A stretch of DNA of 64,000 bases, from NCBI GenBank assembly GCA_963718005.1, contig CAVQXV010000008.1, positions 82,557-146,556 of the forward strand, in the 5' to 3' direction. Source of the DNA: an uncultured Gemmatimonadales bacterium (lineage in GTDB: Bacteria > Gemmatimonadota > Gemmatimonadetes > Gemmatimonadales > JACORV01). Shown piece by piece: positions 17,752-57,425 of this stretch (the first letter of the stretch is position 1; the number at the start of each line of letters is the position of its first letter). The notes under the pieces are model-generated. The model did not search any database. It was not told where the DNA came from and saw nothing but the letters and a program-made list of their open reading frames with translations. The position numbers and the translations under genes were made by a program.

Positions 17752-17893
17752 GTGAGGAGTGAGACGTGAGGGGTGAGAAGGATAGGTGAGAGGTGAGAGG
17801 TTGAAAGGCGTGAGAAGGCGGGCCGCGCCTTCTCACGCTTCGTACTTCTCACTTCTCACTTATCCTCCTCACCCCTCACGCCTCACCTCTCAC
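17752..17893. repeat. family A heptamer-built palindromic element, copy 1
   Basis: GTGAGNN array, core hairpin GCGTGAGAAGGCG-GGCCG-CGCCTTCTCACGC, mirrored NNCTCAC array; between convergent dcd and globin genes. Confidence 0.9.
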
Positions 17894-18354
17894 CTTTTCC
17901 TCACGATTTGCCCTCGAAAGCCGTTCAGCGCGTGCAGCAGCTCCCGCTCCTCGTTGGGGCCGACGCCCGCGTGATCCAGCGCCCCCGCCAGATCCTCGAT
18001 CAGCGCGTCGAAATCCGCGTCGCTGATCTGCATGTCGGCGTGCGCCTCGCGCATGCCCTTCCCGGTGTAGCGGCAGGGACCGCCGGTCGCCTCGCAGATC
18101 TGGTCGGTGAGCTTGGCCTTCAGGCTGTCGAGGTCCACGCCGCGGAAGAAGGCGTTGATGCGCGCGTCGGCGGCCACCCGGCCGAGGAAGTCGCCGACCA
18201 CCGCGCGGATGGCGGTCACTCCGCCCAAGCGGGTGTAGAGCGAGGGCCCGGTCGGAATCGCGGCGGGCGCGGCGGGCGCCGGCGCCGGCGGCGCGGCGTG
18301 CCGGCAGGCCGGGAGCAGCAGCGCCCCGACGAGCAGCGCCGCCGCCGGCCTCAC
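17890..18354 (-). CDS. group I truncated haemoglobin with lipoprotein signal peptide
   Basis: SLYTRLGG, INAFF, TGGPCRYTGKGMREAH (proximal His); N-terminal LLLPAC lipobox and Pro/Ala linker. Confidence 0.88.
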   Translation of the reverse strand: MRPAAALLVGALLLPACRHAAPPAPAPAAPAAIPTGPSLYTRLGGVTAIRAVVGDFLGRVAADARINAFFRGVDLDSLKAKLTDQICEATGGPCRYTGKGMREAHADMQISDADFDALIEDLAGALDHAGVGPNEERELLHALNGFRGQIVRKR

Positions 18355-18773
18355 AGATCGAGCTCCTTGAGAACGTCGTCCGCGTCGTCGGTCTTGGGGC
18401 GCACCAGCACCAGGATGGCGGCCTGGGGCACCACCAGGTACTTGGAGCCCTCGAACGTGATTTCGACCGCCGCCTTCCGGAAGAACAGGGCGTAGTCGCC
18501 CACCCGGGCCTGGATGGGCACGTATCGCCCGCCCTCGCGGGCGTGGATCTTCCACGGCTCGTCGTCCAGGCTCGCGGGCTCGGCCAGCGGCGTGCCCGGG
18601 CCGGTCGCGATGATCCGTCCCCCCTGCACCGCCAGGGCGTCGATCGCGGTCTGCGGGAGGTAGAGTCCCACCCGGGTGCGCTCCTCCCCTTCCTCCGGGG
18701 TGACGAGCACGCGGTCGCCCACCACGATCAGGCGCTTCGGGCCCTTGTCCATCGGCGCCTCCGCGTCAGGCAT
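18351..18773 (-). CDS. GroES/Cpn10-family paralogue
   Basis: VVGDRVLV, GLYLP, IIATGPG, VGDYALF, KYLVVPQAAIL; extra DDEPWK insertion; no groEL in window. Confidence 0.8.
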   Translation of the reverse strand: MPDAEAPMDKGPKRLIVVGDRVLVTPEEGEERTRVGLYLPQTAIDALAVQGGRIIATGPGTPLAEPASLDDEPWKIHAREGGRYVPIQARVGDYALFFRKAAVEITFEGSKYLVVPQAAILVLVRPKTDDADDVLKELDL

Positions 18774-19062
18774 AGTTGACGGCGAACATCTCGTGCAGGT
18801 CCACGGACAGGAGGCCCGCCCGCACCATGGGCTGGTTCTCCACCAGCTGCTCCGCTTCCTTCAGCGACTGGACGTCGTAGACCACCAGGCCGGCGGAGTG
18901 GTCGGCGAGCGGGCCGGAGAGGAAGATCTCCCCGCTGCGCTGCAGGCTCGCCAGGTACTCCTTCTCGCGCTGCATCAGCACGTCGTCGCAGCGCGACGTG
19001 AAGATCTCGGGGGCGACGCAGACCTTGACCCACCCCATGATCATCTTGCGCTCAGTGGACAT
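18766..19062 (-). CDS. YciI/muconolactone-isomerase-like small protein
   Basis: 98 aa; YLASLQRSGEIFLSGPLADHSAGLVVY..AEQLVENQPMVRAG resembles YciI. Confidence 0.65.
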   Translation of the reverse strand: MSTERKMIMGWVKVCVAPEIFTSRCDDVLMQREKEYLASLQRSGEIFLSGPLADHSAGLVVYDVQSLKEAEQLVENQPMVRAGLLSVDLHEMFAVNYA

Positions 19063-19174
19063 CTTGCGCCTAGCTTAGGGACCACCTTGCGTTGCGCGCA
19101 AGGCATCGGGGAATATTCAGGAGCCGCTGGAACGTCGTGAGACCCGCGCCACCCGAGGTCGCAATGGTGCCCGC

Positions 19175-19865
19175 ATGACCGCCACCACCGCCGCATCCCT
19201 CCCCCGCCTCAGACTCCCGTACGTTGCATCGACGATCGGCCGCAAGGTGGTGATGGCGGTCACCGGCCTGATCCTGTTCGGCTTCGTGCTCGGTCACTTC
19301 GTGGGCAACCTGACGCTGTACCTCGGCCCCGAGGCCATCAACCACTACAGCGAGTTCCTGCACGGCTTCCTGCACGGCGGCGGCCTGTGGGTCGCGCGCA
19401 GCGGCCTGCTCGTCTCGGCGGTCCTGCACGTGTGGAGCGCGACCAGCCTCACCCTGGAGTCCTGGGCGGCCCGGCCCGAAGGGCTACCGGCGCTGGACGG
19501 CGAAGGACTCCACCTACGCCTCCCGCACCATGCGCTGGGGCGGCGTGATCCTGCTCGCGTTCATCGTCTTCCACCTGATGAACCTCACCTTCGGCAACGC
19601 CCACCCCGACTACGTCCGCGGCGACGTCTACCACAACGTCGTCGCCGCCTTCCAGGTGTGGCCGGTGTCGGTGTTCTACATCGTGGCGATGGTGGCGCTG
19701 GGCCTGCACCTCGACCACGGCGTGTGGAGCATGTGCCAGACGCTCGGCCTGAGCCATCCGCGCTACAAGCGGTGGGCGCGGCGGGCGGCCCTGGGCTTCG
19801 CGCTGCTCATCGTGGTGGGCAACTGCTCCTTCCCGATCGCCGTCCTCGCCGGATGGGTCCGATGA
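19175..19865 (+). CDS. sdhC: succinate dehydrogenase cytochrome b subunit
   Basis: STIGRKVVMAVTG, GHFVGNL, LHLDHGVWS; b558-type single anchor. Confidence 0.92.
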
Positions 19866-56004: not shown

Positions 56005-56020
56005 CGGCAGGAATACAGAC

Positions 56021-56074
56021 TGCAGAACAGTTGCCAGACGCCAAGTTGGCAGTGGTTACGAGTTGCCAGAGGGC
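56021..56074 (+). repeat. family B single arm, intergenic (ALDH-thiolase)
   Basis: TGCAGAACAGTTGCCAGACGCCAAGTTGGCAGTGGTTACGAGTTGCCAGAGGGC; 21-nt core identical to 22583-22603. Confidence 0.85.
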
Positions 56075-56077
56075 GGT

Positions 56078-57297
56078 TTGAGTAGAGACGCCGTCATTGT
56101 CGATGCGGTGCGGACACCTGTCGGGCGGCACGGAGGCGTTCTCGCCTCCGTCCGGCCGGACGACCTCGCCGCGATCCCGATCCGGGCGCTGGTCGAGCGG
56201 ACGCGGCTCGATCCGCGGACGATTGACGACGTCATCCTCGGCTGCGCCAACGGCGCGGGCGAGGACAACCGCAACGTGGCGCGGATGGCCGGCCTGCTGG
56301 CGGGCCTTCCGGTCGAGGTCCCCGGCCAGACCGTGAACCGGCTGTGCGGCTCGGGCCTCCAGGCGGTGGCGAGCGCCGCGCAGGCGATCCGCGCGGGCGA
56401 GGGCGACTGCTTCATCGCCGGCGGCGTGGAGTCCATGACGCGGGCGCCGTACGTGATGCTCAAGGGCTCCGAGCCGTTCTCGCGCACTCCCCCGCCCTTC
56501 GCCGACTCGACCCTCGGCTGGCGCTTCGTCAATCCGGCCATGAAGCCGGAATGGACCGTGTCGCTCGGCGAGACGGCCGAAGTCGTGGCCGGCCTGCACC
56601 GGGTGAGCCGCGAGGATCAGGACTGCTTCGCGCTCGAGAGCCAGCGGCGCGCGGCGGCGGCCGTCGCGGAGGGCGTGTTCGCGGACGAGATCGTGCCGGT
56701 GACGGTAGCAGCGGCGCACAGGCGCACAGACGCACGGACGCACGGTGGTCACGCAGGACGAGCACCCGCGGCCCGACACCACCATCGAGTCGCTCCGGAA
56801 GCTCAAGCCCGCGTTCCGCCGCGAGGGCGGGACGGTGACGGCCGGCAGCAGCTCCGGGATCAACGACGGCGCGGCCGCCCTGCTCGTGATGGAGCGCGCG
56901 GCCGCGAAGGCAGGCCGGCCTGACGCCCCTGGCCCGCATCGTGGCGAGCGCGGTGGTGGGCGTGGATCCGCAGATCATGGGCATCGGCCCGGTGCCGGCC
57001 GTGCGCAAGGCGGCCGAGCGCGCCGGTGTCGGCGTCGGCGACCTGGACCTGGTCGAGCTGAACGAAGCCTTCGCCGCGCAGGCGCTGGCCTGCATGCGCG
57101 AGCTGGAGCTGGATCCCGAGCGGGTCAACGTGTACGGCGGCGCCATCGCGCTCGGCCATCCGCTCGGCGCGACCGGCGCCAGGATGCTGACGACGCTGGT
57201 GCACGCGATGAAGCGGCGGAAGGCGAGATATGGGTGCGCGGCGATGTGTATCGGGGTGGGACAGGGGATTGCACTGATAGTGGAGCGTGAGAAGTGA
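56078..57297 (+). CDS. acyl-CoA thiolase (PaaJ/PcaF-like)
   Basis: [45 protein letters not shown]. Confidence 0.93.
56714..56745 (+). repeat. octamer tandem repeat x4 (family C) inside the thiolase
   Basis: GCGCACAG GCGCACAG ACGCACGG ACGCACGG. Confidence 0.75.
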
Positions 57298-57425
57298 GAA
57301 GTGAGGCGTGAGACGGGTAAGTGAGATGTGAGAGGTCGAAAGGCGTGAGAAGGGTCAATGCACCCTCTCACTTCGTCTTCTCACCTCTCACTTACACATC
57401 TCACGTTTCACTCCTCACCTCTCAC
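57287..57425. repeat. family A element, copy 4
   Basis: GTGAGAA GTGAGAA GTGAGGC GTGAGACGGGTAA GTGAGAT GTGAGAG GTCGAAAGGCGTGAGAAGGG..CCCTCTCACTTCGTCTT then CTCAC array. Confidence 0.9.

Follow-up and report, generated by a model that had tools for sequence, protein, structure and literature searches.

Heptamer-built hairpins at gene 3' ends in a Gemmatimonadales genome: probable gene-less relatives of a cassette that carries a PF05635 gene

A 64,000-nt stretch of DNA from an uncultured Gemmatimonadales bacterium, referred to here as the window, carries four copies of a palindromic repeat built from GTGAGNN heptamers. We call this repeat Family A. Copies 1 and 2 lie between convergent genes; copies 3 (tpiA-secG) and 4 (thiolase-enoyl-CoA hydratase) lie between co-oriented genes. 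Re-reading of the sequence confirmed these positions and contexts, which had been given in a first-pass annotation of the same DNA. The genome of origin (G000; contigs C3, C4 and C5 are named below) is assembled in 10 contigs totalling 3,191,939 bp, with 72% G+C. Outside the window, this genome has one long copy of the repeat with a gene of the PF05635 family in its loop. Family A is probably the gene-less miniature form of this hairpin cassette, which resembles the intervening sequences (IVSs) of 23S rRNA.

Anatomy of Family A and the gene-carrying copy

Three consecutive heptamers, with one mismatch or none, match the window 14 times and all 14 matches fall within the four copies. The expectation from 100 dinucleotide shuffles of the window was 0.01, and the largest count in any shuffle was 1. 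The layout is the one originally described, in which three GTGAGNN units precede a 13-mer and two further units lead to a core and a loop, with the mirrored arm beyond. The 13-mer consists of GTGAG and an 8-nt spacer that is mostly AAGGATAG-like. The core is indeed asymmetric. Its two sides are module A, which joins AGGTCGAAAGGC to a following GTGAG, and module B, in which AAGACGAA precedes GTGAG; compared with A, module B lacks 4 nt and has 2 substitutions. The copies face opposite ways, as claimed, with A before B in copies 1 and 4 and B before A in copies 2 and 3. Two parts of the description needed narrowing. The palindrome of about 140 bp is present in copies 1, 3 and 4 and not in copy 2, which is truncated. 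The term "oriented" suits the four window copies and not the family genome-wide, since 13 symmetric A/A copies exist. The proposed long hairpin was recovered for full copies, which fold as hairpins of about 65 bp on both strands (−87.5 to −114.2 kcal/mol and z −10.5 to −16.8 for those in the window; Table 1).

The suggestion that longer copies might carry an open reading frame (ORF) in the loop proved right. The interval G000:C3:490339-490903 contains two single-arm clusters, 443 nt apart, that flank a PF05635 gene. It is the only long copy in G000. Each arm has 7 GTGAG-type heptads with an internal 13-mer, and module A is on the left and module B on the right, as in copies 1 and 4. The product of the loop ORF scores 76.2-76.5 bits with the PF05635 profile (23S_rRNA_IVP; cut-off 33.8) and 73.8 bits with TIGR02436, named "four helix bundle protein" (cut-off 24). 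In a phmmer comparison it matched 2gsc_A with an E-value of 1.9e-8. A structural model, built with 12 sequences from the genus, has four helices and a pLDDT of 92.2. Its best structural match is Xcc0516 (2gsc_B; TM 0.81/0.85, 34% identity). Next are BT_0352 (2rld) and Avd, a protein of diversity-generating retroelements (DGRs; 4dwl_D, TM 0.76/0.86; also 8ub7_C, TM 0.74/0.82). Judged by these profile matches and the predicted structure, the loop gene is a member of the "23S rRNA intervening-sequence protein" family, with the fold of Xcc0516 and Avd.

We compared 13 genomes of the genus, with orthology assigned by flank similarity. The gene-carrying cassette occupies the same locus in 11 of them. 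In each of the 10 genomes where GTGAG arms flank it, the loop ORF is intact, and it is under purifying selection (median dN/dS 0.15, range 0.05-0.25, median pS 0.65, 45 pairs). Altogether, 40 PF05635 matches were found in 12 of the 13 genomes. For 30 fetched loci, the 350 nt upstream of the gene were aligned with the reverse complement of the 350 nt downstream; controls were 150 dinucleotide shuffles of the downstream flank. At 27 of the 30 loci the true score (33-115) was above every control (maximum 32). The long copy in G000 scored 70. Two other loci (L067 and L087) have arms visibly built of repeats and scored 30 and 29, and L086 runs into a contig end. In direct orientation, the flanks scored 17-27. 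At least nine kinds of arm unit occur in tandem, either 7-8 nt long or composites of 13-15 nt. A further six loci in the genus comprise five GTGAG-armed copies and one with GTGATG arms.

Arm motifs follow the protein tree (36 sequences), with 9 changes, the minimum for 10 labels; shuffled labels needed 22.5 on average, and none of 200 shuffles was as low. Proteins with GTGAG arms group in a single clade (SH-aLRT 98), beside the two GTGATG-armed proteins. At the level of these sequences, arm motif and protein clade are associated, which is not evidence of co-evolution since kin share labels. One genome, G010, has two cassettes of the clade at different loci, with GTGAG arms and with GTGATGR 7-nt arms (L082 and L124). 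Its gene-less arrays are few, with 5 and 0 outside the cassette for the GTGAG and GTGATGR kinds respectively.

A second gene-less palindrome family, with GTTGC(C/G)AGACGCC-type units, occurs in the window at 22572-22717 and near 56030-56075, 40061 and 60966, and has about 127 hits in G000 (one mismatch or none, both strands). The corresponding gene-carrying copy holds the PF05635 gene at G000:C4:235288-235590, in which the frame continues beyond its normal end through a frameshift or an assembly error. At 34216-34240 of the window, GGGTGTA-type heptamers (read as the complement) form a short array; in sister genomes, this motif makes up the arms of another PF05635 subfamily. G000 has 8 triple-unit hits of the GGGTGTA type and 68 hits of GGTTGTN in threefold repeat. 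A weak PF05635 fragment at G000:C5:277401-277700 (23.5 bits, below the cut-off) is preceded by heptamer-like repeats rich in TAGG and GGGTG, and is probably a decayed cassette.

Census of the family and placement at gene 3' ends

Further copies of Family A are numerous. We found 58 arm clusters genome-wide, a cluster being five or more GTGAG or CTCAC words; they correspond to 56 gene-less loci plus the long copy, whose arms count as two clusters. In every copy with both arms, the GTGAG one lies 5' of the CTCAC one. The usual form has 7+7 units and is 139-145 bp long. The loops of short copies are 9-37 nt, typically about 17 nt, and contain no ORF. Core types among the 58 clusters were A/A (13), B/A (13), A/B (10) and B/B (0), with 22 partial or untypable. 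Family A is a dispersed family with one common higher-order layout, of 13-mer and A and B modules, and not the product of independent slippage, as the first-pass annotation had argued.

The same annotation had named a lack of compensatory changes between the arms among the results that would count against its reading. There were none at the variable positions. In 19 canonical elements out of 54 that were parsed, arm-to-arm identities, both of the two-nucleotide (NN) spacers and of the 8-mers, were within the range of shuffled controls. A set of 103 matched NN spacers from 39 elements had 66.0% pairable positions, compared with 67.1% ± 2.1 after shuffling, and there were 35 G-U and 32 A-C pairs. 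The loop consensus is near AGGGCGGGCCGCACCCT. Past four conserved pairs, the loop stem has a weak excess of pairing (mean 0.65 versus 0.46; 69 of 2000 shuffles as high). Since the arms lack compensation, what is conserved is the GTGAG word and not base pairing as such. Thirteen orthologous pairwise comparisons at three sites gave 742 identical pentamer columns of 830 (89%), a value somewhat inflated because repeat alignments can slide, versus 616 of 996 other columns (62%). The GTGAG words are kept while the sequence between them drifts.

The copies sit at gene 3' ends. Flanks were scored by codon usage in a frame-free manner, and 49 of the 58 loci have a coding signal on both sides. Convergent flanks were found at 21 loci, co-oriented flanks at 26 and divergent flanks at 2, with 9 unclear; the 21:2 ratio of convergent to divergent differs from 1:1 with P = 3.3e-5. 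Individually, 67 of the 116 flanks are coding and directed toward the element. The first stop of the incoming frame is a TGA in the first three units of the element in 43 of these 67. A further 22 frames stop 4-30 nt before the element, 2 stop deeper inside and none stops further away. Three successive GTGAGNN units place a TGA in every frame and, because the element is palindromic, do so for genes entering from either side. In co-oriented contexts, the orientation of the A/B core relative to transcription looks unbiased (about 8:4 by eye).

Details of the window copies are given in Table 1. The ORF upstream of copy 2 stops at a TGA (27770-27772) within the second unit, in a frame conserved in relatives. 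The thiolase gene likewise ends on the TGA of the second GTGAG unit of copy 4 (57295-57297). An isolated extra GTGAG is found beside copy 3, at 29936-29940.

Table 1. Copies of Family A, the loop ORF of the long copy and flanking genes. Positions are those of the window except for the loop ORF.
Feature	Position	Strand	Description	Predicted RNA fold
Copy 1	17752..17893		7 GTGAG + 7 CTCAC; module A left, degenerate module B right	-114.2 (+), -108.2 (-) kcal/mol; z -16.8, -16.2
dCTP-deaminase-like gene	stop 17745-17747	+	flanks copy 1	
Bacterial-globin-like gene	stop 17890-17892	-	flanks copy 1; stop codon inside its last CTCAC	
Copy 2	27762..27850		truncated: full left arm (7 GTGAG, module B), loop, first CTCAC only	not significant; z -1.4 and -1.0
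Copy 3	29960..30099		module B left, module A right; several right-arm units mutated, 5 exact CTCAC; fills tpiA-secG spacer	-88.9 and -96.9 kcal/mol; z -10.5 and -11.8
secG	29514-29915	-	flanks copy 3	
tpiA	30106-30720	-	flanks copy 3	
Copy 4	57287..57425		module A left, module B right; fills thiolase-enoyl-CoA hydratase gap (hydratase start 57437)	-87.5 and -90.1 kcal/mol; z -11.1 and -12.4
Loop ORF of long copy	C3:490463-490834		123 codons	

Some features of the window lie beside the copies. Past copy 2, and downstream of the HU gene (27915-28235, minus strand), there is a separate short G+C-rich hairpin at about 27862-27895. It is kept in sister genomes that have no Family A there and looks like the terminator of the HU gene itself. 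The thiolase gene (55910-57297) is in two frames, 55910-56923 and 56941-57297, and many other genes look frameshifted. Together with the 58% marker completeness of the 10-contig assembly, the frameshifts fit indel errors and not real pseudogenes. At gathering thresholds, the sole Rfam match in the window was a tRNA gene unrelated to Family A (RF00005, 51227-51309, minus strand, 56.3 bits); Family A had no match and there was no rRNA. When the segment 56900-57800 was compared with three DNA contig sets, only partial, diverged pieces were found, and one metatranscriptome run yielded 0 reads for it.

Variation between genomes and loss of the gene

The sites of the four window copies were read in related genomes. 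Site 1 is occupied in all nine other genomes read (G009, G005, G011, G004, G008, G003, G002, G001 and G007) by a palindromic array right after the upstream stop. GTGAG-type arrays account for seven of these; the site holds a 3+3 stub in G007 and GTGATG units in G002. Nine genomes have the gene order of site 2, which is filled only in G000 and G008 and empty in the other 7; the C-terminus of the upstream protein differs between the filled and empty states. Site 3 is occupied in 11 of 12 other genomes, G002 having different DNA. Nine of these genomes have a GTGAG-type copy, that of G010 being short; GTGATG units are present in G006 and a tiny stub in G007. Site 4 varies in arm length: G009 has 7+7 units, G008 9+9, G011 2+2 and G004 1+1. 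G003 retains the left arm only, G005 has a right arm at a contig end, G007 a small degenerate hairpin, G002 GTGAT-type units and G006 a bare foot hairpin.

The variants are specific to genomes. Of 83 arms in G000, 58 carry GGAT in the 8-nt spacer and 2 carry GTTC. Among the arms listed and counted by eye, GTTC is present in 34 of 43 in G004 and 66 of 75 in G012, and GGAT in none; 147 further rows lie outside those listed. Orthologous copies carry the spacer variant of their own genome, and so do the arms of that genome's gene-carrying copy. GTGAGNN arrays are nearly absent from G002 and G006 (2 and 0 hits), in which the 8-nt unit GTGATGNN has 108 and 76 hits respectively. A search of G002 for GTGAT at a 7-nt period gave no hits, the unit there being 8 nt. 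GTGATG units were read at orthologous sites 1 and 4 in G002 and at site 3 in G006. They also form the arms of the orthologous cassette of G002, whose protein is the most divergent of the clade.

No PF05635 match was found in G007, which is 95% complete. Its cassette locus holds a 2+2 stub, each of the three occupied sites has a small stub, and pattern searches of the genome gave 2 and 3 hits. Thus, the only genome of the genus that lacks the gene keeps only stubs. Neutral divergence in place cannot give the genome-specific pattern of variants. The uniformity within a genome may reflect overwriting of old copies from the current master, by gene conversion or replacement, or repeated recolonisation of the same sites.

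Beyond the genus, a pattern containing the 13-mer was found in 36 stretches of named public genomes, 33 of them titled Gemmatimonadales or Gemmatimonadetes. Of 401 genomes sampled across the phylum, 79 contain a run of four GTGAGNN units. This tally includes the genome G081, flagged as unpublished, of which our other claims are independent. By family, the counts are 5/5, 59/166 and 13/93 for three families of the same order (f1, f3 and f2) and 1/136 for other families. One of the PF05635 genes of G025 has arms that match the GTGAGTY arrays of that genome, and in G033 the sole arrays are the arms of such a gene.

Comparison with known systems, alternatives and significance

The closest parallels are with IVSs. 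In the available text of one report, ORF-bearing IVSs of 23S rRNA (helix 45 in Coxiella burnetii; Leptospira) are described as encoding S23p (PMC4990558). The Coxiella IVS has three tandem GACAGAT heptamers and one degenerate heptamer just upstream of the S23p ORF, in strain-variable number, and its 5' RNase III cut falls at the first heptamer repeat (same source and extent). Like these IVSs, Family A has complementary ends that form a long stem around a loop with a PF05635 ORF, here in the long copy only, and the protein family and fold are the same. Unlike them, the window copies are between protein-coding genes and not in rRNA, the arms are almost wholly heptads, and about 56 copies are gene-less, lie directly at stop codons and vary together with the copy that carries the gene. 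Family A shares with REP and REPIN sequences that it consists of abundant intergenic palindromes after genes, depleted from divergent spacers and uniform within a genome. It differs in that its arms are arrays of 7-nt units and not one short imperfect palindrome, and its long form carries a four-helix-bundle gene. A search of G000 for the Y1 transposase RAYT (PF01797) gave 0 matches, in an assembly that is 58% complete; the same search was positive in 6 of 14 control genomes. The first-pass annotation had called Family A a non-autonomous mobile or REPIN-like element. We retain the first description in the sense of a gene-less form of a longer element, and drop the REPIN identity. The long copy with its PF05635 gene, together with the lack of a detected RAYT, leads us to the IVS-like cassette instead.

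Dispersed heptameric repeats are known from cyanobacteria as STRR sequences. Family A resembles these, and the GGGNATC and TAACTGA families, in its 7-nt units, variable unit number and location in non-coding DNA. The GGGNATC heptamers of Xanthomonas and Nostoc are transcribed, lie within 50 bp of stop codons and are under-represented between divergent ORFs, according to the available part of that report (PMC4692102); TAACTGA heptamers occur in Beggiatoaceae (PMC4679880, likewise in part). Both are portrayed there as direct arrays, with G-quadruplexes or regulatory sites as the proposed explanation. Family A differs from the published heptamer families, as described, in its two inverted arrays and fixed internal modules, and is itself linked to PF05635. 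That protein family is described as Avd-like in the accessible text of PMC10053308. The loop protein shares the fold of Avd with a sequence identity of only 10-13%. Unlike DGRs, Family A has no template or variable repeats, and a search of G000 for reverse transcriptase (PF00078) found no match in its incomplete assembly; DGR-like retro-homing was dropped on this result.

Resident host hairpins are one alternative. On this account the elements are bidirectional terminators or 3'-end stabilisers kept in place by host selection, drifting by slippage, with the PF05635 gene as a passenger. The strict 3'-end placement, with 21 convergent loci and 2 divergent, would follow naturally, as would the 65 of 67 incoming frames that stop inside the element or no more than 30 nt from it, the very stable folds on both strands, and the occupancy of three of the four window sites in most genomes of the genus with 1+1 to 9+9 units at a single site. 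However, selection for a hairpin sits poorly with arms that lack compensation and with a single complex layout common to all copies. Nor does it account for spacer and unit variants that are specific to a genome and the same in its gene-carrying copy, or for a copy-2 site filled in just 2 of 9 genomes. Repeat arms belonging to 27 of 30 PF05635 genes are unexpected for a passenger. As to termination, no T run follows copies 3 and 4 and copy 1 is followed only by CTTTTC. Intrinsic (Rho-independent) terminators were rejected as candidates on the missing T runs after copies 3 and 4 and on stems of about 65 bp, which far exceed terminator length. Overall, we consider resident hairpins unlikely.

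Classical transposition would instead make Family A a REPIN moved by RAYT, or a MITE (a miniature transposable element with inverted repeats) moved by a DDE transposase encoded elsewhere. Many dispersed intergenic palindromes, an insertion-polymorphic copy-2 site and a range of 0 to 83 pattern hits among sister genomes all suit such an element. Yet the sole long copy encodes a four-helix-bundle protein and not a transposase, PF01797 is unmatched in the incomplete assembly, Rfam yields only the tRNA in the window, and no target-site duplication was seen at the 4 compared sites. We regard this origin as highly improbable. A MITE derived from an insertion sequence or transposon was set aside on two of these grounds, the protein of the long copy and the absence of a visible duplication at the compared sites, the latter being a weak test given their divergence. 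Heptads can also serve as operators, as in plasmids where they are bound by ribbon-helix-helix repressors. If Family A were an array of cooperative sites in double-stranded DNA, for chromosome organisation or transcription roadblocks, the hairpin would be a by-product. A conserved 5-nt word with varying 2-nt spacers, arms without compensation, the strict 7-bp period and the presence of both orientations agree with this. Against it, the only protein tied to the arrays is the one encoded in the loop, and no other DNA-binding protein. Placement at stop codons and depletion from divergent, promoter-containing spacers better fit a role at the RNA level or at 3' ends, and in the rRNA relatives the arms act as RNA and are cut by RNase III (PMC4990558, available text). 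Protein-binding DNA arrays are therefore a very unlikely explanation in our judgement.

Several observations count against the IVS-like cassette that we favour. Genome G040 has 189 GTGAGNN hits and none of its 4 PF05635 genes is GTGAG-armed; either it is a counter-example or a gene was missed. G006 has 76 GTGATG arrays and no detected cognate gene, the cassette locus being absent from its assembly. Old hairpins reshaped in place would also fit the presence of an element at three of the four window sites across most of the genus. Neither target-site duplication nor defined ends were seen at the 4 compared sites, where divergence weakens the duplication test, and left boundaries vary by several nucleotides between species. 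The match of motif to clade may be shared descent alone. The loop gene is antisense to both flanking genes. Finally, the reading frames at gene ends come from our own codon score, in a frameshift-rich assembly of 58% marker completeness, and the sliding of repeat alignments noted above tempers the pentamer identity.

How might a gene-carrying cassette give rise to dozens of gene-less copies? Short copies would have arisen from the gene-carrying form by loop loss, a kind of deletion seen in the stub at the cassette locus of G007. Repeated replacement or gene conversion may hold the copies uniform within a genome. By analogy, the loop protein is a putative ring-shaped nucleic-acid-binding oligomer; it may recognise the heptad arrays and be needed to maintain or spread them. 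The chance that it binds the repeats is modest. Transcripts through a full copy can, according to the fold predictions, form a hairpin of about 65 bp. In mRNA, such hairpins could act as RNase III targets or as 3'-end hairpins or protectors; the RNase III step is proposed because the arms of the rRNA IVS act so in Coxiella.

A bolder proposal, which we hold tentatively and think more doubtful than not, is that the loop protein is a sequence-specific reader of its own arrays and drives a transposase-free copying or homing that rewrites gene-end hairpins genome-wide. If so, protein and repeat word would co-evolve, as in the change of GTGAG into GTGATG, and a single small selfish gene would govern the 3' ends of dozens of mRNAs. 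Such a system, whether mobile or based on gene conversion, would be of a new kind, and the 30-year-old family of "intervening-sequence proteins" would gain a function.

PF05635 proteins, also named S23p, "four helix bundle protein" or Avd-like, are very common. To our knowledge they have no known function outside DGRs, and the excess of 7-nt repeats between bacterial genes is likewise unexplained as far as we know. A full-text literature search, supplements excluded, found no paper that ties gene-less hairpins, or PF05635 genes generally, to inverted heptamer arrays. New here are the size of the family, its placement at stop codons, the lack of arm compensation, the variants shared with the master at orthologous sites, and the genome with stubs only. 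This genus ties PF05635 proteins and intergenic 7-nt repeats together in a testable form. It offers one conserved, selected gene-carrying hairpin per genome and dozens of gene-less copies that match its variant, with G007 as a natural "knock-out" in which the copies have collapsed and the change from GTGAG to GTGATG as a natural specificity switch. The elements end many genes, with the stop codon inside, and fill operon spacers such as tpiA-secG. Hence, an effect on mRNA ends and on the annotation of genes in these soil bacteria is probable.

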